This document shows, in pieces, positions 4,909 through 31,686 of a DNA stretch of 64,000 nucleotides. This DNA is from an uncultured Gammaproteobacteria bacterium (GTDB lineage Bacteria; Patescibacteriota; Microgenomatia; JAUYPR01), in the NCBI GenBank assembly GCA_964372495.1, contig CAYJQU010000003.1, positions 79,042 to 143,041 of the forward strand. Direction: 5' to 3'. A program made the position numbers and the translations under genes. The notes below the pieces were generated by a model. That model did no database searches and was not told the DNA's origin. It saw nothing but the letters and a program-made list of their open reading frames with translations. Each line of letters opens with the position of its first letter. Position 1 is the first letter of the stretch.

Positions 4909-5643
4909 ATGACGATACAGGCGATCAAGAGCGAGAAAGTGGAACCGGGACGTGGTGACTTGTCATCTCTGCTCAATAAGTACGTACCCCCACTTCCAGA
5001 GCGGTCAGTTCTGGCGGTGACCTCAAAGATCGTATCGATTTGTGAAGGGAACGTGGTCAAAATAGGGGAAGTGGACAAAGACCAGCTTATCAAGAAGGAG
5101 GCGCAAAGGTACCTCCCGCGTTCTTCAAGTAAGTACAATGTGTGCCTCACAATAACAAAAAACGCACTGGCGGCAAGCGCTGGTATTGATGAGTCGAACG
5201 GCAATGGCTATTATGTTCTGTGGCCGCAAAATCCTCAACAGAGCGCAAATCAGGTCCGCTCGTATCTTACTAAAAGATTTGGGCTAACCCATGTGGGAGT
5301 TATACTGACGGACAGTAAGACAACACCTCTACGCTGGGGGGTAACTGGCTTTGCCTTGGCGCACTCAGGATTTGAAGCTATAAAGGATTATATCGGCACG
5401 CCGGATCTCTTTGGTCGTCTCTTTGAGTACGAGAAAGTAAACGTTGCGGATAGCCTAGCTGCCTCAGCCGTGGTGGTTATGGGGGAAGGGGCCGAACAGA
5501 CACCGCTTGCGGTCATAGAAGACGTGCCGTATGTAACATTTCAAGATCGCGATCCGACACCGGATGAATTACAGACAGCTCAGATTGACATTGAAGACGA
5601 TCTGTATGCTCCGCTTTTGACAAGCGTGCGGTGGAGGAGCTAA
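4909..5643 (+). CDS. CofE-like gamma-glutamyl ligase family protein (F420-0:gamma-glutamyl ligase homologue)
   Basis: 244 aa; VLAVTSKIVSICEG and GIDESNGNG...VGVILTDS segments resemble the CofE/FolC-like gamma-glutamyl ligase fold. Confidence 0.5.
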   Translation: MTIQAIKSEKVEPGRGDLSSLLNKYVPPLPERSVLAVTSKIVSICEGNVVKIGEVDKDQLIKKEAQRYLPRSSSKYNVCLTITKNALAASAGIDESNGNGYYVLWPQNPQQSANQVRSYLTKRFGLTHVGVILTDSKTTPLRWGVTGFALAHSGFEAIKDYIGTPDLFGRLFEYEKVNVADSLAASAVVVMGEGAEQTPLAVIEDVPYVTFQDRDPTPDELQTAQIDIEDDLYAPLLTSVRWRS

Positions 5644-7398: not shown

Positions 7399-7710
7399 AT
7401 GATGTACGAATTAGTGGTGGTTACGGTCCCGGATTTGTCGGAAACAGAACGCGAGGGCCTGATCGATTCAATACGAAAGGCTGCGGAAAAATCTGATGGA
7501 TCTATCATGCAGACTGATGTGTGGGGAAAACGCCAGCTTGCCTATCCTATCAAGCGGTATCATGAAGGAGTATATGTGCTTTTGACCCTCACAGGCGGAG
7601 CCAAACTTTCCAAAAGTATTGTGGCGCATTTAAAGCAAGAAGAAAGAGTAATTCGTCACCTGATAGTACAGAAGGAGGAGGAGAAAGCACGCAAAAGATC
7701 GCGTGCTTGA
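7399..7710 (+). CDS. rpsF: 30S ribosomal protein S6
   Basis: MYELVVV...WGKRQLAYPI signature; first gene of the conserved rpsF-ssb-rpsR arrangement. Confidence 0.85.
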   Translation: MMYELVVVTVPDLSETEREGLIDSIRKAAEKSDGSIMQTDVWGKRQLAYPIKRYHEGVYVLLTLTGGAKLSKSIVAHLKQEERVIRHLIVQKEEEKARKRSRA

Positions 7711-7716
7711 AACTGT

Positions 7717-8274
7717 ATGGCGAGCCGTTCACTGAACCTTGTGCAGCTTATAGGGAACCTGACGCGGGATCCTGAGCTTCGATATATACCTCAGGGTACT
7801 GCTGTCTGCTCCTTTTCAATCGCGACCAATCGATCCTGGGTGCCGGCTGACGGTAGCGAGCGCCGCGAGGAAACTGAGTACCATCGCATAGTCGCATGGA
7901 ATAAGCTTGCCGAACTCTGCAGCCAGTTGTTGTCTAAAGGAAGAAAAGTGTATGTGTCAGGTAGGTTGCAAACTAGGCAGTGGGAAACACCGGATGGGCA
8001 AAACCGTGAACGCACCGAAGTAGTAATTGACGACATGATTATTTTGGACAGGCGGGTGCAAGATGCACCACGGGTTGCCGAGGCAGTTACCTCTGACGTG
8101 ACGCAGACTAGCGCTGCGCAAGCGGGAGATGATATCCAAGCTCCAGCTACAGCGACGTCTCAGACTTCTCCAAGTACATCAACTGTGTCTGATGGGGACG
8201 AGGGTAAGGGCAAGGAGACAAAAAAGGCAAATGCGGAAACCGACATCGTGGACATCGATGATATTCCGTTTTAA
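7717..8274 (+). CDS. ssb: single-stranded DNA-binding protein
   Basis: OB-fold N-terminus LNLVQLIGNLTRDPELRY; low-complexity tail ending DDIPF. Confidence 0.9.
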   Translation: MASRSLNLVQLIGNLTRDPELRYIPQGTAVCSFSIATNRSWVPADGSERREETEYHRIVAWNKLAELCSQLLSKGRKVYVSGRLQTRQWETPDGQNRERTEVVIDDMIILDRRVQDAPRVAEAVTSDVTQTSAAQAGDDIQAPATATSQTSPSTSTVSDGDEGKGKETKKANAETDIVDIDDIPF

Positions 8275-8276
8275 AG

Positions 8277-8561
8277 ATGATACGTGATTCTCAGAAATCG
8301 GATAGACCGAAAAAGCATGGTAGCCGCCCAGACTCTCGCCCAAACCGTTACTACCGGCGAAAAGTATGTGTATTTTGCACGAACGGCTGGATCCCGGATT
8401 ATAAAAATGCTGCCCTGCTTCGCAGATTCATTACAGAGCGTGGCAAAGTCATGGGTCAGGCCAAAAGCGGTACGTGTGCCCGGCACCAGCGTCAGGTCGC
8501 GCTCCAGATAAAGCGTGCTCGCCATCTGGGCCTCCTTCCGTTTACGGCTCGGGTTTTGTAG
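8277..8561 (+). CDS. rpsR: 30S ribosomal protein S18
   Basis: CVFCTN...GTCARHQRQVALQIKRARHLGLLPF matches the S18 signature. Confidence 0.9.
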   Translation: MIRDSQKSDRPKKHGSRPDSRPNRYYRRKVCVFCTNGWIPDYKNAALLRRFITERGKVMGQAKSGTCARHQRQVALQIKRARHLGLLPFTARVL

Positions 8562-10272: not shown

Positions 10273-11501
10273 TTCGACTCAAGACCGCCATTTTTTGGAT
10301 TGTGGTAGCAGGTGCATTCGCTTACGGCTTGGGGTGGCATCTTTCACGCACTGATATTTCGGTGCTATCAACTGATGTAGGACCCACGCTACGGATTACC
10401 CAGAAGGAGCCACCAGCGCATTTAAGCGATGTAAACTTGGGTCTGTTTTGGGAAGTTTGGGATCATCTCGAGAAACAATACATCGATAAAACCGCGGTCA
10501 ATCGACAAAAAATGGTTGAAGGTGCTATTTCTGGTATGGTTTCCTCCCTGGGAGATCCGTATACGACGTTTCTACCCCCTCAGCAAAATAAAACCGCAAA
10601 GGAGGAGCTGGAAGGAAGTTTTGAGGGAGTAGGCATTCAGCTGGGGTTTAAAGATAAACGGCTCGTGGTAGTTGCTGCGATTTTCGATACACCTGCAAGT
10701 AAGGCAGGAGTAAAGCCCGGCGACTTCATAGTCAAGATCGACGGCAAAGAAACGGCCATCATTACCATGCCGGACGCAGTCAGCAAAATTCGCGGTCCAC
10801 GGGGTTCTACGGTCGCGTTGACGATTATGCGAGAGTCAGAGGTCAAACCGTTGGAGTTTACACTAACACGGGACAAGATACGAATCAAAAGCGTGGATGT
10901 CTCGTTTTTTGATCATGTTGCGTACATAAAGCTGAGTCGATTTGGGGATACGACGAGCGAGGAATGGAATAATGCCGTACGAGAGGTTCTTGCAAAAAAT
11001 GCACAGGCCCTCGTACTGGATGTACGTAATAACCCCGGGGGTTATCTTGACGGAGCGGTGGTTATCGGTGGTGAATTTTTTGAGGAGGGTTCCATTGTAC
11101 AGAAGGAGCACTCTTCAGGGAAAAAGGAAATTCGTAGTGTACAAAGGCCCGGAAGGCTCGCTTCAGTTCCGGTGGTTGTGCTTATCAATAAGGGGAGCGC
11201 CTCGGCTTCTGAGATTGTTGCAGGTGCCATTGCGGACCGAAAACGGGGTATCTTGGTGGGGGAACAGTCATTCGGCAAGGGAAGTATTCAGGAGGTTATC
11301 GAGCTGCCTAAAGGTGCAGGGCTTCACATTACCACGGAGCGGTGGCTGCTTCCTTCCGGCGCGTGGGTAAACGGGAGCGGGATCACACCAGACATTGTTG
11401 TTGCATCAAGCGATAAAGAAGGGGAGGATCCACAACTTGACCGGGCACTCGCAGAAGCGCGTAAGCGTATTGCCAGTAGTGGATCTAGTTGGATAGAATA
11501 G
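10266..11501 (+). CDS. ctpA: carboxyl-terminal processing protease (S41 family) with PDZ domain
   Basis: N-terminal TM; PDZ-like GVKPGDFIVKIDG; S41 catalytic region VLDVRNNPGGYL and INKGSASASEIVAGA. Confidence 0.8.
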   Translation: MVIRLKTAIFWIVVAGAFAYGLGWHLSRTDISVLSTDVGPTLRITQKEPPAHLSDVNLGLFWEVWDHLEKQYIDKTAVNRQKMVEGAISGMVSSLGDPYTTFLPPQQNKTAKEELEGSFEGVGIQLGFKDKRLVVVAAIFDTPASKAGVKPGDFIVKIDGKETAIITMPDAVSKIRGPRGSTVALTIMRESEVKPLEFTLTRDKIRIKSVDVSFFDHVAYIKLSRFGDTTSEEWNNAVREVLAKNAQALVLDVRNNPGGYLDGAVVIGGEFFEEGSIVQKEHSSGKKEIRSVQRPGRLASVPVVVLINKGSASASEIVAGAIADRKRGILVGEQSFGKGSIQEVIELPKGAGLHITTERWLLPSGAWVNGSGITPDIVVASSDKEGEDPQLDRALAEARKRIASSGSSWIE

Positions 11502-12648: not shown

Positions 12649-13560
12649 AACGATTGGTCCCAGGTCCCCGTCCAGGATTTCCTCTAGATTATGCCATGAC
12701 TTCTGTAAACGGTGTTCGGTGACGCGGTTTTGCGGAAAATTGTAGGTACGTATTTTTTCCGACCGGTCACCGGTTCCTACTTGTGAACGTCTGGTCTGCC
12801 GCAGTGACTGATCACGGGCTTGTATTGCGCGTTCCCACACCTTAGCACGCAGAATCTTCATGGCATTCTCTCGGTTCTGTGCTTGCTGTCTCTCGGTCTG
12901 ACAGGTGACAGTGATACCTGTTGGGGTGTGGGTAAGACGTACCGCAGTACTTACTTTATTGACATTCTGTCCCCCATGGCCGGTGGCACGAAAGGCTTCA
13001 AATGCAATATCGTTGGGGTGAATGTGCACCTGGGTGTCTCTCAGCACTGGCAGCACCGCGACCGTGGCAGTCGAGGTGTGAATACGCCCTGCGCTTTCGG
13101 TTATGGGAACGCGCTGGACACGGTGGATTCCTGATTCATGCTTCAGTAACCCATAGGCTCCTGCACCGGAAATTTTAAGGGTAAGTTCTTTCAGGTTCCC
13201 GAGGCCACCCTCGTTGCGGTTTACCTCCTCTGTTTTCCAGCCGTTCCGTAGCGCAAATCGGGTGTACATACGTACCAGATCGGCAGCAAATAAGCCTGCC
13301 TCATCGCCTCCAGCAGCTGCCCGAACCTCCAAAATGGCATCGTGGCCGTCGGCATTTGGACTTGTTTCCTGGTTGGTCTGTGATTGTTGCTGTGTTTCGC
13401 TTGGGGGCTGCATGGCGATTTGGAGCGCAGCGCGCTCACTGGTAAGTCTTTTAAGCTCCTCTCGCGCAAGCGGAGCGAGTGCGGGGTCATCAAGGAGGCT
13501 TTTGGTCTCCTCGATTGTTTTATTGAGCTTGGTAAGCTGGCCGGATAGGATGTTGTTCAT
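12622..13560 (-). CDS. prfA: peptide chain release factor 1
   Basis: GGQ motif ([10 protein letters not shown]); PIT tripeptide in [14 protein letters not shown] (RF1 PxT type, not the RF2 SPF type); 312 aa. Confidence 0.8.
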
Positions 13561-13587
13561 GGTAGATATACCTGCGATGGAGAACTG

Positions 13588-13896
13588 TTATCCTTTGTTC
13601 TTTTGCTCAACAAGGAGCATTTCTCGCAGCGTCATGGGTTGTTCTTGCCGGCGCTGGTCCTGCTTCTTTGGTCTTTCTGTGACTCTCCGCTGTGCGGCAA
13701 GCTGTTGTCGCTCTCGGAAGCGTTCCACACGGCCGAGTGTGTCAATAAGCTTCTGTTGACCAGTAAAGAACGGGTGGCACTTGGAGCAGATGTCCACACG
13801 CAACGACGGTTTGGTTGAGCCGATGGTAAATGTATTGCCACACGCACACACAATAGTTGACTGTGGGTAATAGGCAGGATGAATATCCGGTTTCAT
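13588..13896 (-). CDS. rpmE: 50S ribosomal protein L31 with basic C-terminal extension
   Basis: [10 protein letters not shown]...CACGN...[10 protein letters not shown] core; about 35 extra basic residues at the C-terminus. Confidence 0.8.
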
Positions 13897-13934
13897 AGTA
13901 GAGGTATATTACCATATTTCGCCAGAAGTGTCTT

Positions 13935-14864
13935 TTACAACTTATGTGATTGGCGGTGGTGCAGGTGCTTATGCTTGCTGCGAAGTACCAGCGCCAAACC
14001 GGCGAGAGTGAAAAGAGCACCAAGGGCAAGTAGCGGAGTTGGGCGTTCACCAAGCAGTGGCACTGCTATGAGGATGGCTATGACCGGCGACAGATACAGA
14101 AAGACCCCCAGCCTCCCGGCCGGCATCTTGGAGAGTGCCCACTCCCAGAGCGTATATGCTACAACGGAAGAGAGAAGACTTAAATACAAAAGCCCTACAA
14201 GGCCTATCCACGTGAGATTGCCAAGCCAGGAAGGATCACGCAGGTGGGCGATGAAAGCAAGTGGTGCGGTGGTGACCATTCCTACGCCGAGGGTCAAGCC
14301 AGTCAGATGCGCGGCTTCATACCGGGTAAACATTTCTTTACTTCCTATCGTAAACAGTACCCACGCGAGTACATGCAGAAATACTAATATGTTACCAAAG
14401 AATTTCTGTCCAACGTTGGCCGTCGGCTCACCGAACGGCTGTGCAATCACGATGATTGCGCCGATAAAAGCGACAAGAAATCCTATTTTGTTAGCTTTGT
14501 TGAACCGTTCGCGTAGTAGTAAACTGGAAGCTGCCGCCTCAAGGAGCGGGGTTGTGGCTACAATGATTGCTGCATCTAGTGCCGTGGTACGTGCAATTCC
14601 TTCAAATGCAAACAGAAGCGCAGCGGTTGAGCCCAGAAACGCAAGAAGAAGGAGCTTGGGTGCATCACTGTGTTTGATTGGGCGGCGTTTCTCTGCTGTC
14701 CACAGAAACGGGAGGAATGCAAAGCCAGCAATAGATAGCCTCAGGAACACGCCGATAACAGGCGGTATTTCGGCGACAACCAGTTTGATAACAGGAGTAG
14801 CAACGCCCCAAATAAGCGCTACCACTGTCGCCGCTACATAGGCAGGCTTCACTGTACGCAGCAT
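13935..14864 (-). CDS. EamA/DMT-family transporter (10 TM)
   Basis: two EamA-like halves of hydrophobic helices; start set at the internal ATG (MLRTVKPAYV) just downstream of the hisS stop; the longer ORF-track start gives a non-hydrophobic leader. Confidence 0.6.
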   Translation of the reverse strand: MLRTVKPAYVAATVVALIWGVATPVIKLVVAEIPPVIGVFLRLSIAGFAFLPFLWTAEKRRPIKHSDAPKLLLLAFLGSTAALLFAFEGIARTTALDAAIIVATTPLLEAAASSLLLRERFNKANKIGFLVAFIGAIIVIAQPFGEPTANVGQKFFGNILVFLHVLAWVLFTIGSKEMFTRYEAAHLTGLTLGVGMVTTAPLAFIAHLRDPSWLGNLTWIGLVGLLYLSLLSSVVAYTLWEWALSKMPAGRLGVFLYLSPVIAILIAVPLLGERPTPLLALGALFTLAGLALVLRSKHKHLHHRQSHKL

Positions 14865-14871
14865 AGAGTTA

Positions 14872-16140
14872 CTAGTAGTATAGGTTCTTAAGAATAATTT
14901 CTGCAACCTCTGTTTGGTTTTCCGTCCGTTGCTCTCCGGTTTGCATATTCTTGATGGTTGCTTGCTCGCGTGGCTCCTCGTCAGGGCCGATGATGACGAC
15001 AAAAGGCACCTGTTTCTTGCTCGCATATGATAGCTGGGCCGAAAGAGGCGCTTGTGTTAGATACAATTCTGCACGCACACCTTTGTCGCGCAGAGCTTTT
15101 GCCATCAAAAGCGAGGCACGGGTGAGCGATAGGTCAAATACGGTTACCAGTACTTGGGTAGGAGTGGGTGAAAGCGATGGAACCTTATCATACTGTCGTA
15201 GCGCTTCTTCTATTATCATATCCCCGCAGGCAAAGCCAACCGCCGGGATAGGCTTACCTGAAAGTAACCCAACCAAGCTGTCATACCGGCCTCCGCCAAG
15301 GATTGCACGGAACTTGCCTTTCCGATCAAATGCCTCAAATACCGTGCCGGAGTAATACAGGAGTCCTCGTACTACTGATGGATCGTAGGTGACGTACTCA
15401 GCAAATCCGAGATCGGCGATAGTCGAAAACAATTCAGTAAGCCACTCAGATTCGTACCGATAGTCCGTATCCCGGATTAAAGCGATAATATCTGCCAGTT
15501 GCTGTGCTGAAAATCCAAGAGAAGTTGCATACTTCTCTTTCTCCGACTGTGAGAGCTTGCCCAACTGATCTATAAGGGTGAGCGCATTCGACAGCTGGCT
15601 CTTTTTTAAGCCCACCCCTTCAGTCAGTTCTTCCTCCATCAACCTTCGGTCATTGATTTTGATTTGTACCTCTTTGGGAGTAAGACCTACTGACGCGAGG
15701 AACGTGCATGCTACGGCGATGATCTCGGCGTCTGCCAACGGACTATCGATACCAAACACATCAACGTCCCATTGGTAGAATTCGCGAGCTCGGCCCTTTT
15801 GTGGTTGCTCGTACCGGAAACGGGGACCGATGTTAAACCACTTAATGGGCTTGAGAAGCTCAGGCTGCCGCTGGGCCACCATGCGAGAAACCGAGGGTGT
15901 CATCTCGGGCCGCAGCACGAGCGTGTTGCCACTGCGGTCGGTGAGGCGGAAGGTTTGCTTGTTAACCAATTCCTCGCTTGTTTTTTGGGTGTACAGCTCC
16001 AGAGGTTCTAGAATTGGCCCCTCGTATTCCTCATAACCAAAGGCCCTGGCAGCCTCGCGTTGTTTGCCAAACAACCACTGCCGGAAGACAAAATCTTCCG
16101 GATAAAAATCTCTCGTTCCCTTGACTGGTCGGATGTTCAT
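14872..16140 (-). CDS. hisS: histidyl-tRNA synthetase
   Basis: MNIRPVKGTRDFYPED class II HisS N-terminus; motifs 2 and 3; C-terminal anticodon-binding domain; 422 aa. Confidence 0.9.
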   Translation of the reverse strand: MNIRPVKGTRDFYPEDFVFRQWLFGKQREAARAFGYEEYEGPILEPLELYTQKTSEELVNKQTFRLTDRSGNTLVLRPEMTPSVSRMVAQRQPELLKPIKWFNIGPRFRYEQPQKGRAREFYQWDVDVFGIDSPLADAEIIAVACTFLASVGLTPKEVQIKINDRRLMEEELTEGVGLKKSQLSNALTLIDQLGKLSQSEKEKYATSLGFSAQQLADIIALIRDTDYRYESEWLTELFSTIADLGFAEYVTYDPSVVRGLLYYSGTVFEAFDRKGKFRAILGGGRYDSLVGLLSGKPIPAVGFACGDMIIEEALRQYDKVPSLSPTPTQVLVTVFDLSLTRASLLMAKALRDKGVRAELYLTQAPLSAQLSYASKKQVPFVVIIGPDEEPREQATIKNMQTGEQRTENQTEVAEIILKNLYY

Positions 16141-17426
16141 AGTACTCGTTCTGATTGTTTCTTAGTGTAACAGTCGGGAGTTTCTCTGTCGAGGGAATCT
16201 ACTCGAAACAGGTGCCTAAATTCACTAAATCTGTCGATTGGAATCTTACCCATGTACAAGAGGAATATAAGCATTTCGTTGTCAGTAAGTGAATTTTCGC
16301 GCTGCAAGCGTTCGATCTGGCGGTTTGCAAAAAGGTACATTCCTTGATATCCATCGACAAAGATAGAAGCCATGATCGCTTCATCAAATGCGAAATCGGT
16401 AAGCCCAGCTTTTTTGTATATCTGCATTACAGATTGTATAGTTAATCCCTTTATATGGTAGAGGTAGTCTGCCATAGCCCGGCAGATAAGCCAGACATCT
16501 CGTCGGTATCGCACGAATGTCATGTCCGCTTTGGTAACGAAAGGTACGACAATGAGGTCGGCAAGTACCTCAGCCTTTACATCGAAAATGTTAGGGGAGG
16601 AGACTCCTGCATAGCTATAAATTTGAGGCAAAATGCCTTGGCGAACTAATGTCTTGTCAAATATCGCCATTTCCAGGGCATGCCCGCAGAATTCGTGGAG
16701 GTACGCAAGTTTCAGAAGCGACATACTATACCGACGTCTCCTGTTTAGGAGAATCCTGGTTGTGAGAGTCTTAGGGTCAGTAACACAGCGCATTGAGAAC
16801 GAAGGATCGTCTACCACATCCACATCAGCAGTGAAGGCGTTGCGCATTTGGTCCCGATACGTTGCTGGAAAACGGACCACTGTTTCAATCCGGGTTCGTA
16901 CTTGTGCGATTGAGCGCCGAACGATCAGTCTTGCTTGCTCGGCACTGGTATCTTGCATCCCCAGAGCTCTTCCTATCTCTTTTAAAGATGGATCTTGGGA
17001 CAATTTATCAAAATCATCGATAATATTTGCATAGCCGAAGTCGATTCCGTAAAACCCCCGTCGTGCGTCGACAGTTTGCTGCAAAGGTCCGTCACGCAAG
17101 TTTTCTAAAATATCACATTTGATAACAGCAGTATCCACGGTCGCTTTGACCACATCAGGTAAGAAACGATCATAAACATTCACTGGTAACTGTCGGGAAA
17201 GCGAAATAAAGATTGTGTATAGCTGCCGTAAAGTAGTTAGTTTTTGCCTGATCCCTTTTGGAACCCGGTATTTCCACGCAGCACGACTATTCGGGTTGGC
17301 TTTCAGCCGTGCCAGTTCCTCCTGCCAATTAGTAGGAGTGCGCACGACAGAGTTGTAGATCCGAAAAATCTCAATGGCTTTGGTATGAATCTGATCCGCA
17401 AGGATATATCGCTTTGTTGTTTTCAT
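16137..17426 (-). CDS. hypothetical protein with HEFCGH (HExxxH) motif, possible metallohydrolase
   Basis: 429 aa; LAYLHEFCGHALEM resembles the HExCGH motif of the TldD encoded in this same window (HESCGH); stop overlaps the hisS start (ATGA-type coupling). Confidence 0.4.
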   Translation of the reverse strand: MKTTKRYILADQIHTKAIEIFRIYNSVVRTPTNWQEELARLKANPNSRAAWKYRVPKGIRQKLTTLRQLYTIFISLSRQLPVNVYDRFLPDVVKATVDTAVIKCDILENLRDGPLQQTVDARRGFYGIDFGYANIIDDFDKLSQDPSLKEIGRALGMQDTSAEQARLIVRRSIAQVRTRIETVVRFPATYRDQMRNAFTADVDVVDDPSFSMRCVTDPKTLTTRILLNRRRRYSMSLLKLAYLHEFCGHALEMAIFDKTLVRQGILPQIYSYAGVSSPNIFDVKAEVLADLIVVPFVTKADMTFVRYRRDVWLICRAMADYLYHIKGLTIQSVMQIYKKAGLTDFAFDEAIMASIFVDGYQGMYLFANRQIERLQRENSLTDNEMLIFLLYMGKIPIDRFSEFRHLFRVDSLDRETPDCYTKKQSERVL

Positions 17427-17429
17427 TAT

Positions 17430-18791
17430 TTATCTCCCCAGGGCTCCTTTTGAGCGAATTACTTGCATGGCGATAAGAGCCTCTCTTCTTAAAAGACCTT
17501 GCTTTTCCATTAGCTGAACACTCTGACGTAGAGCGCTAGCTTCTGTTTGACCCGCCGCCATTTCTTCCCCTAAAGGAGAAAGCATATCGCTTGCCAGAGC
17601 ACCAATACCAAGTTGCTCAGCTCCCTCCTTAGCAAGAGTAATAAGGGCACCTCCAATTACACCCGCAGATTCTCGTTTGCCAGTTACTTCCAAGACTGCT
17701 GCAATGCCTTTTCTGCCTTCTCTGAAATTTTTTTGAGCAAGCGCATAGGAGCCGAGCGATCTTCCTTTAAACCACTCAACTGCACCAAGTAAAAGAATGA
17801 GCGCTTGTGTGGCCCGCATTGGCGTCGTCGAGTCGAGGAAACGAATCTCAACTCGCGAAGTTCCATTTTCTTCATCAAGACGCAGACGCGTCGACATGTG
17901 GGTCGCTCCATAGGTGAGTGCAAGCGCCTGCCTCTGATCGTCTAAGACTATAAATGGAGGCATCACTGCGTTGAGCATATTCCTGTAGTGTTCCAAAACT
18001 GAATTCGCAGGTCGGGCAAGTCCACCCCGCTTTTGCTCTCCCTGTTCAAGCATTTCTTGCCGGGAACTGCCAAGTCCTGTATCAATGCCCGCCGCGTAGG
18101 GTGAGTTTCCAAACATTGCTACAAGTGGACCGGCTAACGCGATGGATATATTGTACGCTTCCAATGTTTCTTTTAGAGTGGGATATGCAACGTGCAGCTG
18201 TGTTGCCGCGCAGCGAGTCATCGCTGATAAGTTTGATGCTACGTCTACCAATACTTCTCCGGTCACAGGATTTTCAATACGCATTGCTTTTTGCGGATTT
18301 TCTGCAAGCGTCGCTTCCTCAAGGTGCTTGTAGCGCGCTCTCTTTTGCTCATCGCGTAGAACCAAATCCCTGCAGCCAGCTCCCACTAGAGGCGCCGTGC
18401 CAATAGGTACGAGGATCCCAATTCCATTGGTGATAGCAGTCACTGCTTTCTGAATTGCTGTTGTTTTACTTTGAAGCGAGGCGAGAAGGCTCCGGATACC
18501 CTCCTTACTCACTGGTGTTACCCCATTGGCATCATATTCAACAGTATAGACAGTGGTATCAGGACGAACCCCCACGTCATTGTTAAATAAGAACGATTCA
18601 ACATTAAGTGGCAGTCCAGTGAGAGCATCAATTATAAACACCTCTTGCTCTATATCGATCGTCCGTGCCCCACGGTCAAAGTAGCCACTGTCTGCAAGTT
18701 GTTGCAAGCGAGTAGCTTCGTTAAGGGCAAGTCCGCGAGTTACATGTGCACTCTCAGGGGTCCAGATCTGTTGTCCTATTTCTTTACCCAT
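17430..18791 (-). CDS. GCS2/YbdK-family carboxylate-amine ligase (glutamate-cysteine ligase family 2)
   Basis: IDIEQEVFIID matches YbdK IELEMQVV; LAGPLVAMFGNSPYAAGIDTGLGSSRQ matches YbdK LSAASPYMQGTDTRFASSR; EIRFLDSTTPM matches EVRVMDTPL; ATG at 18791 preceded by AAGGAG; the alternative TTG at 18812 would overlap the upstream gene. Confidence 0.6.
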   Translation of the reverse strand: MGKEIGQQIWTPESAHVTRGLALNEATRLQQLADSGYFDRGARTIDIEQEVFIIDALTGLPLNVESFLFNNDVGVRPDTTVYTVEYDANGVTPVSKEGIRSLLASLQSKTTAIQKAVTAITNGIGILVPIGTAPLVGAGCRDLVLRDEQKRARYKHLEEATLAENPQKAMRIENPVTGEVLVDVASNLSAMTRCAATQLHVAYPTLKETLEAYNISIALAGPLVAMFGNSPYAAGIDTGLGSSRQEMLEQGEQKRGGLARPANSVLEHYRNMLNAVMPPFIVLDDQRQALALTYGATHMSTRLRLDEENGTSRVEIRFLDSTTPMRATQALILLLGAVEWFKGRSLGSYALAQKNFREGRKGIAAVLEVTGKRESAGVIGGALITLAKEGAEQLGIGALASDMLSPLGEEMAAGQTEASALRQSVQLMEKQGLLRREALIAMQVIRSKGALGR

Positions 18792-21633
18792 TGCTATTCT
18801 TTCTCCTTGCAAAAGCCATCATTTTGAGTTCAAACTTGGGGAGTAGTGTGCCTTCGTTATCAACGACTAAAGAAAGGACATTTGGCTGTACAATCACTCC
18901 CTTAACGCCCTTCAAGGCAAGTTCACGTAATTTCTTCCCAATAAAAGCTCTACGCATCTCTAGGCTGCTCAACACGCTTGCAGGTATTGAGTACGCAGAA
19001 ATGACCTCACCTGCCACACCTTCCCGACCTGGAATTTTGTCAGTAGTCTTGAGTACGGCACCCAAGAATGCTATCTCCGGGTATCGCCTCTTATTCTGTT
19101 CCATAAACTGCACAATTTCGTCGCTTGCGCCTTTAAGGCTGCAGCTTGCGAGATCCAGATCGAGGTATGGCATAACCTCGACACCCAGTGGTGCAAGTTT
19201 TGCCGTTAGAGCTGCAAGAATCGGCGAGTTGATACGTTTATCGGATGCAACAAGCCGTGAAGCATTGCTAGGTTCCATCACGACGCCATGCGGAAGGGTT
19301 ACTAACACGTCACCTCTGCATCCTATACAGCGCCCTTCTCCCAAGAACGTGAAGCGTTTTACAATGAGGTCAGGCGCGATAACGTCACCTTTCAACGTTG
19401 GGACGGTAAGTTTCCCACCAGTTCTCCCGCTTACTTCCAGGCACTGCTCTAGGATCTCCATAGTTGTTATACCAACTGCTTCAATGCCGGGAACACGGAA
19501 CAGAGCATCTTCAAGTATTGTGTATTCAACGTTCATAAGTGTTAGATCTGCTTCCCGCGGCACGATAAGCACGGTTTTTGGTAACCGACCAGTTTTCGTT
19601 TCATATGAGGCCAAAAGCGCGGAGATGTACGCGTCCACATGGCCGGAAGACTTCCCCAGTAACTTCTGTGAGAGCATTTCGCTGATTCCCACTCCTCCAG
19701 CACCTCCAGATATATCAAAGATTGTCAGGCGGAGCTTTCCTTCCCGGGTTAGAGAAGCCAACGGTGGCTCAAGTCCCTCAAGATTTCCTTGCGCCATGAA
19801 GGTTTCAAGAATCTGTCTTCGTGTCTCAGGGGGATAGAGTAAGAAGTAATCCATCTGGAGTAACTCTCTCCCTGGGGTCATTTCTGTGGGTGGTGCATTC
19901 AGTAGACTACTCAAATGTGCGCGTGCTACTGCCGTTATTTCCTCGACTGGCACGCGCACTTTATTAGTAGGAGCGAGCATCCTACAGAGGTTCCCAGATA
20001 CAGTGTCGACTGCATCGGCAACTAGTTGTGTTGCTGCGACCAAACCTTCTGCGTATGGTTGACCGACGCATGCACGCAAGGGTGAAAGACGCACAGTATT
20101 TTGTATCAACCGCGCGCCATACCGGGATTGTAGTGTGAGGTTTGTATCTAGCTCAGGAGTGACCGTTCCAGTAAGTCCTTGTATATCATCTCTTAGCTCA
20201 AACAGTGGCGTGCCAGCAAGCTTGCTCCCAGCACCACGTCCTACCATTGAGAACAACATCTCCGTTTTCCGCTCGGGGGTGTAGAATGTGATTGGTTGTT
20301 CAACAACCCCGTCGGCCGTGTCGATAGATGTCGTAAAGTAGCCATTAAATTCCGGTGAACCTGCGACGAGCTCATTGATTCGTGAAGCCAGCTCGTCTCT
20401 TGTTGCAGCCAGTGATACCGTTGTACCGAATCGCAGTAGATTTTCTGGAGATACCAGCTGGCTTTTTCCAATTGTGACCTGGGGAACGACAAACTGGTAA
20501 GCTTTTGGTCGCGATCCAGGTTCAAGCTGCACGACCTCTGTGCCTGTCTTGGGAGAATCGTCGGATGCCATAAGCCGACAAGCGCTTTCTATGAGCTTTA
20601 TTTGTATCGTGGGTAGCTCAGAAAGCTTTGCTACATCAGTAAGTGTTGTGCGCTGTGCCTCGAGTAATGCTGTATCAATCGCGGCTCGTGCACGCTCTTC
20701 GGTCAATTCTTGAATAGTGCGCTGGGCAAAAAGCTCGAGTAACTCATCCCCGGTAACCGCATCTTTGAGTCGTTTCCTGAGGAGTTCTTTCCCGCGAGTA
20801 AGGACGGCCTTCCTAAGAGAAACTCCTTCTGCGAGATTATGTACATCTATTGTGCTAGCTACATTCTCTTGTTCGATAATTTCGTTTACTGCGAGTTCAA
20901 ACCGAGAGTATTCTCGTGCTCCGCCTGCGGCTACGGCCTCTCGCCTCATAACCATAAGCTTTCGTTCGACGATAATGTTACGTAGTTTTGTAAGGACTAG
21001 TGAATCGCCTGCTAGTAGCTGGGGAAAACGTATTGCCGCAAGCCCTCGTGCCTCCTGGGCAATCTGGTTTTGGAGCAAAGTATCGCTACGTGCACGCTCG
21101 AGCACTTGTTCATCAAGCACTGCAAGCACGCCGCGTGCCTTTTCAGCGTTAGTAGCTACGTTTGTATCTGGTACAATCGAGAGTCCTTGAAGATATTCAT
21201 GAGAAAGTTTTCTGAGCTTAATAAATCCTGCCCTAGTCTGTGGAAGCGTTACGGGAAGCAGCTCTCTCAAGCGGGATGCTGTGCTAAATGAACTTATATC
21301 TCTTGCTACTTGCATAAGTCGCTCAATGCGGTCGCTGGTGTCGAGTACCAAACTAAGCGGTAACGAGCCAACACGCTCTTGGAGGAGCGCGCTATTCGGG
21401 CCCCTGCTGTTCGAATCACGTATGTCTCCGTCTACCAGGAAATCAAGGGCGGGACTGTTCTGCATAAGCACTTTAGTGACCACATCGCATGCGCTTTGGT
21501 CGCTGCTTTCCTCGCGCCGCATGAACTGCCGAACACAATTCACCCCGCGCCTAAGCCGCAGTCGAGGTACGGTACTCTCAGTATCGATCCGCTGCTCCAA
21601 TATTCTTATTAATTCTGTTCTTTCAACCTGCAT
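18784..21633 (-). CDS. large (949 aa) protein of unknown function; N-terminal half helical and charged, C-terminal half with a glycine-rich DISGGAGGVGIS loop
   Basis: uninterrupted 956-codon ORF; the Gly-rich loop resembles the phosphate-2 motif of actin-like (ASKHA) ATPases (DIGGGTT); no confident family assignment is possible by eye. Confidence 0.45.
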   Translation of the reverse strand: MQVERTELIRILEQRIDTESTVPRLRLRRGVNCVRQFMRREESSDQSACDVVTKVLMQNSPALDFLVDGDIRDSNSRGPNSALLQERVGSLPLSLVLDTSDRIERLMQVARDISSFSTASRLRELLPVTLPQTRAGFIKLRKLSHEYLQGLSIVPDTNVATNAEKARGVLAVLDEQVLERARSDTLLQNQIAQEARGLAAIRFPQLLAGDSLVLTKLRNIIVERKLMVMRREAVAAGGAREYSRFELAVNEIIEQENVASTIDVHNLAEGVSLRKAVLTRGKELLRKRLKDAVTGDELLELFAQRTIQELTEERARAAIDTALLEAQRTTLTDVAKLSELPTIQIKLIESACRLMASDDSPKTGTEVVQLEPGSRPKAYQFVVPQVTIGKSQLVSPENLLRFGTTVSLAATRDELASRINELVAGSPEFNGYFTTSIDTADGVVEQPITFYTPERKTEMLFSMVGRGAGSKLAGTPLFELRDDIQGLTGTVTPELDTNLTLQSRYGARLIQNTVRLSPLRACVGQPYAEGLVAATQLVADAVDTVSGNLCRMLAPTNKVRVPVEEITAVARAHLSSLLNAPPTEMTPGRELLQMDYFLLYPPETRRQILETFMAQGNLEGLEPPLASLTREGKLRLTIFDISGGAGGVGISEMLSQKLLGKSSGHVDAYISALLASYETKTGRLPKTVLIVPREADLTLMNVEYTILEDALFRVPGIEAVGITTMEILEQCLEVSGRTGGKLTVPTLKGDVIAPDLIVKRFTFLGEGRCIGCRGDVLVTLPHGVVMEPSNASRLVASDKRINSPILAALTAKLAPLGVEVMPYLDLDLASCSLKGASDEIVQFMEQNKRRYPEIAFLGAVLKTTDKIPGREGVAGEVISAYSIPASVLSSLEMRRAFIGKKLRELALKGVKGVIVQPNVLSLVVDNEGTLLPKFELKMMAFARRKNSNG

Positions 21634-21651
21634 ATAATCTCTTTTTGCCCA

Positions 21652-21680
21652 CAAAAAAACCTCCCGGCGGGGAGGTTTGT
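21652..21680 (-). terminator. candidate intrinsic terminator on the minus strand (CCTCCCCGCCGGGAGG hairpin plus T7) downstream of the secreted-protein gene
   Basis: plus strand reads AAAAAAACCTCCCGGCGGGGAGG; it sits immediately 5' of the 949-aa gene start. Confidence 0.4.
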
Positions 21681-21830
21681 CCTGTTTTGCTTACGTTATT
21701 TCGTTATGATTCAAGCACGACAGCAACACCCTCCCCAGTGAGAGGATAGAAATGGAACCAATAGTTGTTGCTTATGCTACTTCTCATAGCTTCCTACTAC
21801 TATACCATAGTTCGTCAAGCTGGTGGCATT

Positions 21831-22832
21831 TTAGAATCTCTTGAGGGGCTCAACGAGGACCATTGACTTGCCAGTTGCGTCGGTGTGCATTTCGTACTTG
21901 TCGTTATCGAGCGAAAATACGATCTTATAGCCGGGAGTGATCACTTGCGCGTAGACCTTTCCTGCCTCTTTGACCCCCAGGCTCGTATCAACCCAGGTAA
22001 CGCTCTCTTTTGACACAACTTTGAGCTTACCTGACGGTACATTTAGGTGGCCTGCAAGTTTTTGCTGAGCCAGAAGCACAACTCTTTCCATTGCCGCAGC
22101 TTGAGTGCTCAGTTTTTCGCTTTTCTCCTTTGGAGTTGGACTTGGACTGGAAAGTGTTGTCGTACCAGTGACATGTATCCGGAGCGCCAGCTTTTCTCCT
22201 CCGTCATCTTCTGTAATGATGACTACTTTTGCGCCGCGGGTTACCTTAGAAAAGTCCGCGGTCTTTTGTCCCTTGACTGATACTTCAGTGTTGTTGTCAA
22301 GCACGAACTCCTCGACTTTGGAAGCTTTTAGATCCTGAATAGTTAGTGATTTAGTGGCGGCTTCGGTTACCATGCCAAAGTATATCGTTTTAGCGCGTTG
22401 GGGTTTGTCTGGAAGGGTGTAGACGCGCAGGGCAAGCGCACCGCCTTCCCTGCCAGATGCTACAACGACGACACGCTGGTCGGGCTTAAGGTCAGCTACC
22501 GTACCTCGTGATTTTCCTTTGATAACAGTTGCTTGTGTAAGCCCCAGCGTTTTGCTGCCAGATTTTGTTTTGATGGTGAGATTCTTTTTGTCGATGGTCG
22601 CAATGGTACCTGAGGAAACCGACTTTCTGATCGTTTCAGCAGTCGCTGTAGCAATTTTCTCCTTTAGGTCATCGGTCAACTGCGCGGCCCGTGTGGCGAG
22701 CTTGGATTTCAGTGCCTCTATGGCGCTCGGCGTTGGTCCGGCGGTTGGCGGAGGGGTAGCTGTTTGGGCTGCAACGAGGGAAGGGAGGATTAGTAGCATT
22801 AGGCTCCCTATAATGACAAGGGGCAGTCTCAT
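21831..22832 (-). CDS. secreted hypothetical protein (signal peptide, repetitive Lys/Thr-rich beta-like segments)
   Basis: N-terminal MRLPLVIIGSLMLLILPSLVAAQ signal; 333 aa; no catalytic motifs recognised. Confidence 0.4.
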   Translation of the reverse strand: MRLPLVIIGSLMLLILPSLVAAQTATPPPTAGPTPSAIEALKSKLATRAAQLTDDLKEKIATATAETIRKSVSSGTIATIDKKNLTIKTKSGSKTLGLTQATVIKGKSRGTVADLKPDQRVVVVASGREGGALALRVYTLPDKPQRAKTIYFGMVTEAATKSLTIQDLKASKVEEFVLDNNTEVSVKGQKTADFSKVTRGAKVVIITEDDGGEKLALRIHVTGTTTLSSPSPTPKEKSEKLSTQAAAMERVVLLAQQKLAGHLNVPSGKLKVVSKESVTWVDTSLGVKEAGKVYAQVITPGYKIVFSLDNDKYEMHTDATGKSMVLVEPLKRF

Positions 22833-23254
22833 TGGGTCTCCTCTGATTCGTAGATGATGGTCCGTTGCACCGTTGACTGGGTTCCATCCTCGCTGACAGC
22901 AGTGATTGTGAGCTCGTTTGTGCCTTCCACCAGTGTCACTTCTGAAGAAAATGTCCCGGACTGGTCGGCCTCAAAAACGTGATCTTTTCTGCCACCGGTG
23001 ATGACGACCGTAGAGCCTGGGCGGGATTTGCCTGAAACTCGGGTAGTACTGCTTGTCGTGTAGGCATCATCTGCAGGAGCGGAGAGGATGAGGGCGGCAG
23101 CAGGCTTGGGTGTGGGCGTTGTCGATGTGGTAGTTGCTGCCGGTGTGGAAGGCGCGGAAATAGATGGAGCGATGCTGCGCACATACAGCGTTGCAGCAAG
23201 AAGCACAATAATGACAATTCCAAAGAGGCTGCTCCAAAAAAGTTTTGAACCCAT
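22829..23254 (-). CDS. membrane-anchored hypothetical protein with Thr/Pro-rich linker and Ig-like C-terminal domain
   Basis: TM helix LFWSSLFGIVIIVLLAATLYV; TTTSTTPTPKP linker; start taken at MGSKLFW; stop overlaps the downstream gene start by 4 nt. Confidence 0.35.
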   Translation of the reverse strand: MGSKLFWSSLFGIVIIVLLAATLYVRSIAPSISAPSTPAATTTSTTPTPKPAAALILSAPADDAYTTSSTTRVSGKSRPGSTVVITGGRKDHVFEADQSGTFSSEVTLVEGTNELTITAVSEDGTQSTVQRTIIYESEETQ

Positions 23255-23364
23255 GATGTATGTAGTGGGGCAGGTATGTTTAGTAACAGGCATGGTATCA
23301 TTGGGCCAAACTCCTTGTCAAGCACAAAGAGCGGTGCTAATATGCCACAAAGGGAGGGTGCTAC

Positions 23365-24003
23365 ATGGACATTACTTGGTTAGGGCAATCCTGTTTCAGG
23401 CTAAAGGGTAAGCAGACAACGGTAGTTACAGATCCATTCGATCCTCAATTTACTGGTCTTAAGCTCCCTACATTAAGCGCAGATATCGTAACCGTTAGCC
23501 ATTCTCATGATGATCATAGTTATGTCCAGGCAGTCAGCGATAACCCTTTTGTGATCCAGGGGCCTGGAGAGTATGAAGTAAAAGGCGTATATATAGTGGG
23601 TGTTTCCTCTTGGCACGATGCAAACGAAGGACGAGACCGCGGGCGCAACGTCATCTATACGATCTCGATTGATGGCGTTACGGTATGCCATACAGGTGAT
23701 CTGGGGCAGAAGCTGACTCCTGCGCAGCTAGAGAGTATTAGCGGCGTAGATGTCCTCTTAATTCCGGTGGGCGGCGTGTACACGATCGACGCCGAGCGAG
23801 CAACCGAGGTCATCGCGCAAATTGAGCCGTGCATTGTGATACCAATGCACTATAAAGTGCCGGAACTGAAATTTGACCTTGCGCCGCTTGAGGTATTCTT
23901 ACATGAGATGGGCAAGGAAGACATCCAGCCAGTTGGCAAATTGGCCGTGACAAAAGAAAAATTGCCCACCGAAATGCAGGTAGTAGTGCTAGAGAAACAG
24001 TAA
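23365..24003 (+). CDS. MBL-fold metal-dependent hydrolase (UPF0173-like)
   Basis: HSHDDH zinc-binding motif (TVSHSHDDHS); 212 aa; downstream HTGD and MHY ligands. Confidence 0.7.
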   Translation: MDITWLGQSCFRLKGKQTTVVTDPFDPQFTGLKLPTLSADIVTVSHSHDDHSYVQAVSDNPFVIQGPGEYEVKGVYIVGVSSWHDANEGRDRGRNVIYTISIDGVTVCHTGDLGQKLTPAQLESISGVDVLLIPVGGVYTIDAERATEVIAQIEPCIVIPMHYKVPELKFDLAPLEVFLHEMGKEDIQPVGKLAVTKEKLPTEMQVVVLEKQ

Positions 24004-31450: not shown

Positions 31451-31601
31451 ACTGCATCACTACAAACAAAGCCCTCACTCAGGGCTTGCCTCTGGTCTGT
31501 AGGTATGCCGATTGTACCAGATGCTCATATCACGTCAACAACAATAATACAACGCTTTTTACCCATGAAGTCATTATACAGGCTTTTCTATAGAGTAGCG
31601 G

Positions 31602-31686
31602 TGCCGGGGGAGGGAGTTGAACCCACACGATCTTTTGGATCACGCGCTCTTGAGGCGCGCGCGTCTGCCAATTCCGCCACCCCGGC
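31602..31686 (-). tRNA. tRNA-Leu (anticodon CAA), class II with long variable arm
   Basis: reverse complement folds as GCCGGGG acceptor stem, D-arm, CGCGC-CTCAAGA-GCGCG anticodon arm (CAA), GATCCAAAAGATCG variable arm, GGTTCAACTCC T-arm, discriminator A. Confidence 0.8.

Follow-up and report, generated by a model that had tools for sequence, protein, structure and literature searches.

A conserved two-ligase and metallopeptidase gene cassette behind a candidate leader-peptide attenuator with aromatic and histidine codons in Patescibacteria

Glutathione is synthesised in two steps by two ATP-dependent amide ligases, and this system, together with the homoglutathione, glutathionylspermidine and trypanothione synthetases, draws on the same two superfamilies as the locus described here, a set of three genes (A, B and C) in a 64,000-nucleotide stretch of an uncultured bacterium of the Patescibacteriota (Microgenomatia, JAUYPR01; contig CAYJQU010000003.1, positions 79,042 to 143,041; hereafter the window). 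Linked ATP-grasp and COOH-NH2 ligases carry out successive peptide ligations (PMC4431377), an amine is coupled to the carboxyl group of a small acid or short peptide by Cp1B, the E-64 ligase of fungi, and by the E. coli peptide-spermidine ligases YgiC and YjfC (PMC12568646), and MATCAP/TMCP, the tubulin carboxypeptidases, are gluzincin carboxypeptidases with an HExxxH motif (PMC10499314). In the LysW/LysX/LysK carrier pathway (ATP-grasp ligase plus M20 deacylase), the ligase attaches an amino-acid precursor by an amide bond and a metallopeptidase releases the product. On the regulatory side, the classical attenuators (trp, pheA, pheST, his and ilv) combine a short open reading frame (ORF) carrying a run of regulatory codons with overlapping 1:2, 2:3 and 3:4 pairings and a terminator just before the first gene. 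No part of the present locus falls outside the described superfamilies and types of regulation; what is new is the family of the protein A core, its N-terminal domain (N-domain), a MATCAP/DUF885-type carboxypeptidase paired with two ligases, and a candidate aromatic-codon attenuator common to fusion proteins of Candidate Phyla Radiation (CPR) bacteria. The gene structure, the fold classes of the products, the conservation of the trio, and the architecture and pairing potential of the leader are demonstrated below. We tentatively propose, as a possibility a little short of probable, that A, B and C are one cassette behind a ribosome-dependent attenuator, and that they encode a starvation-induced pathway in which two ligases and a carboxypeptidase handle a short peptide conjugate.

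All three genes lie on the minus strand. Gene A (18784..21654) opens at a TTG, and the start used by all homologues is the ATG at 21633, from which the protein is 949 aa long; gene B (17430..18791, 453 aa) and the gene A stop overlap by 8 nt, a 3-nt gap separates B from gene C (16137..17426, 429 aa), and the C stop overlaps the ATG of hisS (14872..16140, minus strand) in an ATGA. An earlier interpretation made from the letters and their ORFs (the sequence-only reading) had described these ORFs and junctions, all of which are present. Its proposals of an undescribed module, a GCS2 ligase, an HExxxH hydrolase and a transcript shared with hisS are supported, whereas hisS coupling as a property of the module, the TldD, ASKHA/GlnE and Pup comparisons and the upstream operon boundary are not. 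Protein A consists of two modules, because a profile search found its core alone, as separate proteins of 556-708 aa, and its N-domain fused elsewhere to other C-terminal domains. The all-helical N-domain (residues 1 to ~378; 20500..21633, minus strand) belongs to a fold family without assignment and is separable from the ligase, and the core (residues ~379-949; 18784..20499, minus strand) is, by fold, a divergent ATP-grasp amide ligase of the glutathione-synthetase/glutathionylspermidine-synthetase (GspS) type.

All fetched loci (labelled L001, L005, L140 and so on) were scanned with hidden Markov models of four units, namely N-domain, core, B and C. The fusion gene followed by B and C was found in the window, in a ~70%-identical relative (L018), in L005 and L017, and in three Roizmanbacteria genomes (L001-3, L009, L010). 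Core-B-C is the order in L014 and in an uncultured archaeon (L013), where a class-II glutamine amidotransferase is next, and B-core-C is the order in L007, whose B and C are each 40% identical to the window proteins. The set of A-core, B and C is known from CPR bacteria and an uncultured archaeon, and its three gene orders amid unrelated flanks make a functional link of core, B and C very likely; the trio is a conserved functional module, as had been proposed from the window alone.

Protein B matches the Pfam GCS2 model PF04107 with 27.9 bits (gathering threshold 21), which supports the GCS2-type assignment of the sequence-only reading; the model is found in 19 of 19 homologues, the archaeal one scoring 35.1 bits, and the B family profile matches plant glutamate-cysteine ligases (E 6e-7 to 1.5e-6). 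Against the NCBIfam gshA/EgtA/YbdK equivalogs the best scores are 21.1, 20.7, 20.3 and 18.6 bits (cut-offs 409, 370.8, 463 and 176.4). Since PF04107 is passed and every one of these cut-offs is far off, B is a superfamily member without a named equivalog, that is, judged by its sequence, a GCS2-superfamily (gamma-glutamylcysteine-ligase-like) carboxylate-amine ligase. GCS2 is part of a wider carboxylate-amine ligase superfamily that also holds the Pup ligases, and B shares this superfamily with the Pup ligase/depupylase pair PafA/Dop. B matches GCS2 and glutamate-cysteine ligases, however, and not the PafA/Dop models; when the 20-120-aa ORFs surrounding 10 loci were compared all against all, the small Pup-like substrate ORF suggested earlier, which would be a disordered modifier ending in GGQ or GGE, did not appear, and the only find was an aromatic-rich leader whose C-termini vary.

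Searches of protein A against Pfam, NCBIfam and PDB sequences (single sequence and profile) gave no match, the profile yielding noise only. The family is extremely rare: 10 proteins turned up when 5.8 billion clusters were searched by word index, and the profile search of 1.84 billion representatives found 34. The Gly-rich loop that had been pointed out in its C-terminal half is real: two such loops, GRGAGSKLAG and FDISGGAGGVG, are invariant among homologues, and the invariant core motifs FDISGGAGG and KTTDKIPGREG lie at 19693-19719 and 19018-19050 (minus strand). Structural neighbours of the A-core (scores in brackets) are the GspS-like protein 3n6x (12.5), the glutathione synthetases of yeast (11.6) and T. 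brucei (11.2), nematode glutathione-synthetase-like effectors (10.5), trypanothione synthetase and E. coli YgiC (10.3 each), homoglutathione synthetase (10.1), GspS (9.7), the putative glutamate-cysteine ligase 3k1t (8.5) and Cp1B (8.2). On this modelled fold, which agrees with the ATP-grasp glutathione-synthetase/GspS/YgiC type, the A-core is a second ligase fused to a separable N-domain, and the earlier comparison of the large protein with ASKHA proteins or GlnE is dropped. The invariant residues K862, D865, K866, G869-R870-E871, Q916-P917-N918 and E935 come, by eye and in loops that are modelled with low confidence, in the order of KPIFSREGANV, IVQQ and IRED in YgiC. The C-terminal motif order is likewise alike by eye (LKTTDKIPGREGVAGEV / GVIVQPN / KFELK in A, YVVKPIFSREGANV / GMIVQQF / GIRED in YgiC), and the local succession KP..REG.N/G.V, (I/V)VQ(Q/P) and a late acidic residue extends to YjfC and Cp1B. 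The A-core differs from these ligases in being ~180 residues longer, in its two extra invariant Gly-rich loops and in its gene partners.

The N-domain is joined to at least 8 C-terminal domains that are mutually unrelated by sequence and have no Pfam match, and a Pfam search with ten N-domain fusion proteins found nothing. Profile-profile comparison of the alternative C-terminal domains, the L011 ATP-grasp protein, the L006 531-aa protein and the L013 945-aa protein found no relationships except X1/P0079 (probability 63%). The helical N-domain may be a shared, exchangeable scaffold or targeting module outside the catalytic core.

For protein C there was no significant sequence match in Pfam, NCBIfam or PDB (single-sequence), and a profile search against solved structures gave noise only; its score against Pfam DUF885 (PF05960) is 16.0 bits (threshold 32.4), with residues 296-377 alone matching. 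Its motif HEFCGH (residues 244-249; 16680-16697, minus strand), of the HExxxH and not the HExxH type, is invariant in 21 homologues; H244, E245, H249 and a downstream E286 (16569-16571), the candidate third zinc ligand by conservation, are invariant as well. An atypical HExxxH with a third Glu ligand defines MATCAP/TMCP and M49 peptidases (PMC10499314), and the structural model of C has the DUF885/MATCAP/M32 gluzincin fold. By analogy with these families C is probably a zinc metallopeptidase acting as a carboxypeptidase, and it is probably cytosolic. The sequence-only reading had correctly seen a metal-dependent hydrolase in the conserved HExxxH site, while its resemblance to TldD has to be given up: C does not pass the TldD/PmbA model PF01523, and TldD is not among its matches. 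C shares the HExxxH and the downstream Glu with DUF885 and MATCAP/TMCP, but at 429 aa it is shorter than these proteins (546-585 aa), has no microtubule context and shares its locus with two ligases. A lipoprotein signal is not evident in C, whereas two of three solved bacterial DUF885-fold members were deposited as putative lipoproteins.

These folds would also allow a reversible C-terminal tagging of a protein, in which A (perhaps with B) adds residues, C removes them and the N-domain recognises the target, comparable to TTL/MATCAP on alpha-tubulin and RimK on S6. MATCAP, a protein C-terminal Tyr/Glu carboxypeptidase, is the second-best structural family of C, the attachment of the N-domain to so many unrelated catalytic domains is as expected of a macromolecular targeting module, and the GCS2 superfamily includes Pup ligases. 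We nonetheless consider tagging unlikely, with nearly all structural neighbours of the A-core being small-molecule or short-peptide ligases (except the uncharacterised 3n6x and 3k1t), with the core lacking the N-domain in L007, L013 and L014 while keeping the same B and C partners, and with no conserved candidate target gene nearby.

Upstream of gene A we found a conserved leader region (21653-21807, minus strand) with the layout of a leader-peptide attenuator: behind a promoter comes a short ORF in which several regulatory codons follow one another, and then a terminator just before the first gene. An extended -10 promoter-like element, TGGTATAGT (21799..21807, minus strand), lies only 11 nt upstream of the leader ATG, which suggests that the leader transcript is leaderless or nearly so; an alignment of 7 loci shows no variation at its TG and TAnnnT positions, and some other loci have a full TTGACA-N16/17-TATAAT promoter at the equivalent place. 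The leader ORF, MRSSISNNYWFHFYPLTGEGVAVVLES (21704..21787, minus strand; 27 codons and a stop), is the sole intergenic small ORF conserved between loci. Its codons 9-14 (21746-21763) encode Tyr-Trp-Phe-His-Phe-Tyr consecutively, just before segment 1 (CCUCUC, codons 14-16, 21740..21745), which pairs with segment 2 (GGGAGG, codons 18-20, 21730..21735). Segment 2 is complementary to both segments 1 and 3 and is a possible antiterminator. Segments 3 and 4 (ACCUCCC and GGGAGGU) make up an intrinsic terminator, AAACCUCCC-CGCC-GGGAGGUUU followed by U7 (21653..21678, minus strand). Its hairpin (21657-21678, minus strand; a 9-bp stem and then seven T) ends ~20 nt before the gene A ATG, and the exact hairpin motif occurs once in the window and in 0 of 100 shuffles. 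The terminator-like hairpin that had been placed at 21652-21680 as the upstream boundary of the operon is real, but it is the terminator arm of the candidate attenuator and not a simple boundary.

The predicted duplex energies (RNAduplex) are -8 to -8.8 kcal/mol for the 1:2 pairing and about -12 (-11.9) for the 2:3 pairing, the latter equal to the terminator. A ribosome was imitated by masking the 5' nucleotides in equilibrium folds. With up to 51 nt covered, a range that takes in a ribosome held on codons 9-14, the partner of segment 3 is segment 2; from 54 nt on it is segment 4. Rfam gave no match by E-value over 13000-24000, nor at gathering scores over the whole window except tRNA-Leu(CAA) (31600-31686, minus strand), the one RNA gene detected in the 64 kb; the leader is not a described riboswitch or T-box. 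In the literature searched, no paper combining 'leader peptide', 'attenuation' and 'Patescibacteria' was found. The present leader differs from the classical attenuators in its occurrence in CPR bacteria, its start 8-13 nt after the -10 element (leaderless or nearly so), its mixed Trp/Phe/Tyr/His run, its regulated genes, which are not biosynthetic, and its association with a whole family of N-domain fusions; like pheST, it has tRNA-ligase genes among those it would regulate.

Twelve leaders from various lineages share the promoter, the leader ORF with its frame and W[FYH]3-4 run, the segments and the terminator, and the aromatic/His codons stand directly 5' of segment 1 in every one. Examples before cassettes are MISSTSNNYWFHFYPLIREGVAVVLTS (L018), MISNTSSNYWYHFYPLTGEGVAVVLTS (L016), MKSNCSNSYWFHFYPLQRGVVAVVLEKA (L005), MKTNCNNSYWFHFYPLLGEVVVAMLMKT (L017), MKSLTNRTNWYHYHHLSGEVGIFVDLIMR (L001, where a 6-nt indel stays in frame) and, before the core without N-domain, MKTLNAFWTYLLSNV (L014). 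A metagenome scan with a narrow N-domain alignment yielded four further loci (L140-L143), which have the N-domain with other C-terminal domains, each preceded by a candidate attenuator of this design with an aromatic leader (MNIFSNTVSYWHYEFTAQSGEFLVPKFM, MNINYSNNYWFFFHPLQREAVL, MSINNSNNYWFYFHPLLREAVAVMQMKA and MKRFSNNFWYHYHPLNRGVVTVALKKV, respectively). Every N-domain fusion gene with upstream sequence available (L140-L143; L008, 1-60) has the same promoter, aromatic leader and terminator. In L140 all segments are rewritten (ACCGCU, AGCGGC, ACCGCC and GGCGGU) with a shifted register; the operon there (JGI Ga0209542_10045983) comprises an N+X1 fusion, a SET-domain protein, trpS (315 bits against TIGR00233, cut-off 176.75) and a 262-aa protein without assignment. 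In L141-L143 an M20 ArgE/DapE-like deacylase follows each N-domain gene. A terminator probe, AACCTCCC-N3-6-GGGAGGTTTTTT, had matches in at least 120 unrelated contigs when run on viral contigs and was rejected as a probe.

In a 13-sequence alignment of leaders, 84.6% of cells are paired for 1:2, with 2 pairs changed on both sides, and 99% for 3:4; the two together reach 92.9% with three double changes. The 2:3 pairing has 93.6% of cells paired in register, compared with 50-78% when the register is slid. RNAalifold added a long-range stem with three compensatory pairs. Sister elements with other sequences were also found. In L014 (4880-5020), a second candidate attenuator of the same design lies 670 nt upstream of the aromatic leader of core-B-C, before an unannotated 172-aa ORF (5018-5536); its leader, MRKLSQNIIIIITS, has five consecutive Ile codons, and its antiterminator forms only at 30-39-nt masks, equivalent to a ribosome on the Ile codons. 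In L007 (20-232), a 35-codon leader, MNLNTTSTIKTTTWHAFACVFIMSLPYKGSSRVGV, with repeated segments CAAGGGTT / AACCCTTG / CAAGGGTT and a weak U-run looks like the same logic in other sequences. The DPANN archaeon of L011 has look-alike small ORFs (7680-7870 and 10830-10990), an aromatic-rich one, MQIASARNLSGQYLYASFSYPYTSTASFQLCWCMWMCSTA, before its A homologue and a Leu-rich one, MLSIGQVLLLQIVQLIDLLLSA, before a conventional ATP-grasp gene; each ends within the 5' arm of a hairpin common to both, GCATAAAG...CTTTATGC, without a U-run, and the two could be what archaea have in place of the bacterial leader.

The same small ORF could instead be a ribosomal scaffold or precursor peptide (a ribosomally synthesised and post-translationally modified peptide, RiPP, or 'pearlin'-like), extended by A/B and trimmed by C, with the hairpin setting the ratio of precursor to enzymes. 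A conserved 15-35-aa ORF directly upstream of the enzymes and followed by a hairpin is a typical RiPP layout, the motif N-x-Y-W-[FY]-[FHY]-[FY]-[YH]-P-L varies less than the flanking parts of classical leader peptides do, L011 has an aromatic-rich small ORF as well, and YgiC-type ligases work on peptide C-termini (cited in PMC12568646). This reading is improbable, however, with the same aromatic leader standing before unrelated catalytic domains in L140-L143, an Ile5 leader standing before a different gene, and tRNA-ligase genes on the same transcripts. Furthermore, the C-terminus, the expected site of a glutathione-synthetase-type ligase or carboxypeptidase, is the least conserved part of the peptide, and a segment 2 complementary to both neighbours would be superfluous for a simple terminator. 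The Ile5 sister element, the leaders of L140-L143 and the trpS of L140 favour a starvation-sensing leader peptide over both a precursor peptide and an RNA-only element.

In the favoured reading, a ribosome-dependent attenuated pathway, transcription would start at the promoter near 21800 and run through the attenuator. With charged aromatic and His tRNAs plentiful, the ribosome would traverse the leader, segment 2 would be masked or captured by segment 1, and the 3:4 terminator would form and halt transcription 20 nt before gene A. A ribosome stalled on the aromatic/His codons would cover segment 1 and leave segment 2 free for segment 3; the 2:3 pairing would then block the terminator, and A, B and C (with hisS in the lineage of the window) would be transcribed. 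B would form a first amide bond; the A-core, like glutathione synthetase, glutathionylspermidine synthetase or YgiC, would acyl-phosphorylate the terminal carboxylate of the short peptide and join a further amino acid or an amine to it, as GshB follows GshA; and C, as a DUF885/MATCAP/M32-type zinc carboxypeptidase, would take a C-terminal residue off again. The joint product of the three, assembled and released by them, would be a short peptide conjugate of non-ribosomal origin; in view of the regulation, its most plausible cargo is an aromatic amino acid or His, which it would carry or deliver. We infer the direction of regulation from sequence, and the reaction order and substrate from the folds.

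Neighbours in variant loci are consistent with this pathway. A core-B pair alone occurs in L006, L012 (Patescibacteria JBAZVQ010000001) and L015, flanked by an M20 peptidase, a class-I glutamine amidotransferase (marginal Peptidase_C26 match, 20.3 bits with a cut-off of 20.5), a nicotianamine-synthase-like protein and a conserved 531-aa protein without Pfam match. In L011 (Candidatus Micrarchaeota contig JASHTL010000065), the N+core gene is followed by the conventional ATP-grasp gene and then an M20 deacylase. In L001 (Roizmanbacteria; 7518-8492 / 15845-16501), trpS is on the strand of the leader, 1.5 kb upstream of it, and a peptidase of family S51 (cyanophycinase/dipeptidase E) converges on the 3' end of C. 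These ArgE/DapE-type M20 deacylases, class-I/-II amidotransferase-type proteins and the S51 peptidase are enzymes that cleave such bonds, and they fit the making and cleaving of small amide conjugates of amino acids. The cognate tRNA ligases on the attenuated transcripts, hisS in the window and L018 and trpS in L140, likewise support the proposed regulation. The pairing of N-domain proteins with ArgE/DapE-type M20 enzymes in L141-L143 and L011 recalls the LysW/LysX/LysK pathway, although the window has neither a LysW-like carrier nor modifying enzymes.

Several observations weigh against this pathway. On the enzymatic side, no ATP-grasp family (Pfam, NCBIfam, PDB) matches the A-core at the level of sequence, and comparison of its profile with E. 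coli YgiC gave no signal (hhalign probability 0.3%), for which reason its ATP-grasp assignment rests on the fold; the model of A is of mediocre confidence (predicted local distance difference test, pLDDT, 65.8), and low exactly at the conserved Gly-rich and KxPGREG loops. The action of B before A is assumed by analogy with GshA/GshB, and inducing ligases that consume an amino acid while it is scarce is not obviously logical. On the regulatory side, unmasked long leaders prefer a nested 1:4/2:3 fold at equilibrium, and the attenuator model needs co-transcriptional kinetics for this reason. The 2:3 antiterminator shows no compensatory double changes in register among the 13 leaders, and the case for it therefore rests on conserved complementarity. 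Leader and N-domain travel together, so the conservation of the leader could partly reflect shared ancestry instead of selection. Finally, the core-B variant of L006, L012 and L015 has neither the leader nor C.

The surroundings of some cassettes raise the question of mobility. In L005 (6325-9215) the cassette adjoins a serine recombinase and a terminase-like gene, in L017 (2854-3741) an rve_3 transposase, and in L016 (3275-3813; protein A ~71% identical to that of the window) a PhdYeFM/ParE toxin-antitoxin pair is inserted nearby; these neighbours, and the fact that CPR bacteria and archaea alike have the cassette, suggest lateral mobility. The locus could on this basis be a mobile conflict or defence module, in which a constant promoter, leader and N-domain carry exchangeable effectors as in polymorphic toxin loci, and a peptide with a toxic or signalling role is made or processed by the ligases and peptidase. 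The constant N-domain with variable C-terminal domains, the recombinase and transposase neighbours, and the patchy distribution across the boundary of bacteria and archaea would fit. We regard this as very improbable: PADLOC defence models gave no match for A, B or C, neither a small immunity-like gene nor a secretion system or signal is present, genes of housekeeping type (hisS, trpS, M20 deacylases) accompany the module, and regulation by amino-acid codons points to metabolism.

Plain synthesis of glutathione or another known low-molecular-weight thiol, with B as GshA, A as GshB and C as an unrelated neighbour, has hardly any probability left: B does lie in the GshA superfamily, the A-core does have a glutathione-synthetase fold and the two are adjacent like gshA/gshB in some genomes, but sequence similarity to the glutathione system is close to nil for A, which matches no glutathione-synthetase model and has only the 34 representatives counted above, B reaches 14-21 bits against gshA/EgtA/YbdK cut-offs of 176-463, C is conserved with the pair as a dedicated carboxypeptidase, A carries an extra N-domain of ~380 aa, the leader codons are aromatic/His and not Cys, Gly or Glu, and the cassette is confined to a few CPR and DPANN genomes. 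Equally far-fetched is the proposal of the sequence-only reading that the module works with the histidine-tRNA ligase, for example in aminoacyl-tRNA-dependent or His-specific tagging, for which the ATGA overlap of C and hisS in the window and L018 and the His codon of the leader could be adduced, but which has against it that hisS is missing from the cassette in every more distant locus and that the N-domain operon of L140 carries trpS instead. Co-regulation by the attenuator fits these two facts better than a shared reaction.

The hisS gene itself is, by its match to TIGR00442 (352.3 bits, equivalog cut-off 286.75), a bona fide histidine-tRNA ligase gene, and here it is very probably on the same transcript as the cassette, as had been suggested. 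Only the window and L018, the ~70%-identical relative, have it behind C, with the ATGA overlap in both, and it was not found with the cassette in Roizmanbacteria, L005, L007, L013, L014 or L017. It therefore lies outside the module, and is probably a lineage-specific passenger of the attenuated transcript that is translationally coupled to C. Beyond hisS, an EamA-family transporter, rpmE (L31) and prfA continue on the same strand (13588-15026, minus strand). No terminator-like site was found after hisS within the scanned part (14500-23500) and, with same-strand genes going on, the attenuated transcript possibly runs past hisS. A 363-aa ORF antisense to gene A (18746..19837, plus strand) was rejected as a shadow ORF because its conservation elsewhere is the mirror image of that of A, and the conservation of other out-of-frame ORFs inside A-C merely mirrors the real genes.

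CPR bacteria and DPANN archaea are generally described as without most amino-acid biosynthesis. More speculatively, and with rather low probability, the cassette could be one member of an unseen starvation regulon of ultra-small symbiotic prokaryotes, in which a common promoter, aromatic-codon attenuator and helical N-domain place at least eight unrelated catalytic domains, the glutathione-synthetase-like ligase of A among them, under Trp/Phe/Tyr/His-tRNA charging, and A, B and C run an ATP-driven 'trap and release' cycle, by analogy with the gamma-glutamyl cycle or the TTL/MATCAP ligase/carboxypeptidase pair, that would hold scarce aromatic amino acids or His in a small peptide conjugate and free them on demand in organisms unable to synthesise them. 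For CPR and DPANN organisms, the locus offers a concrete and testable regulatory device for amino-acid shortage, a candidate attenuator tuned to aromatic/His codons. It links proteins that are publicly annotated as 'hypothetical protein' or are nameless, namely divergent glutathione-synthetase-type ligases, a bacterial MATCAP relative beside ligases, and an exchangeable N-domain. Identification of the product would add a non-ribosomal peptide pathway and would give a function to the A and C families, for which there is no Pfam model.

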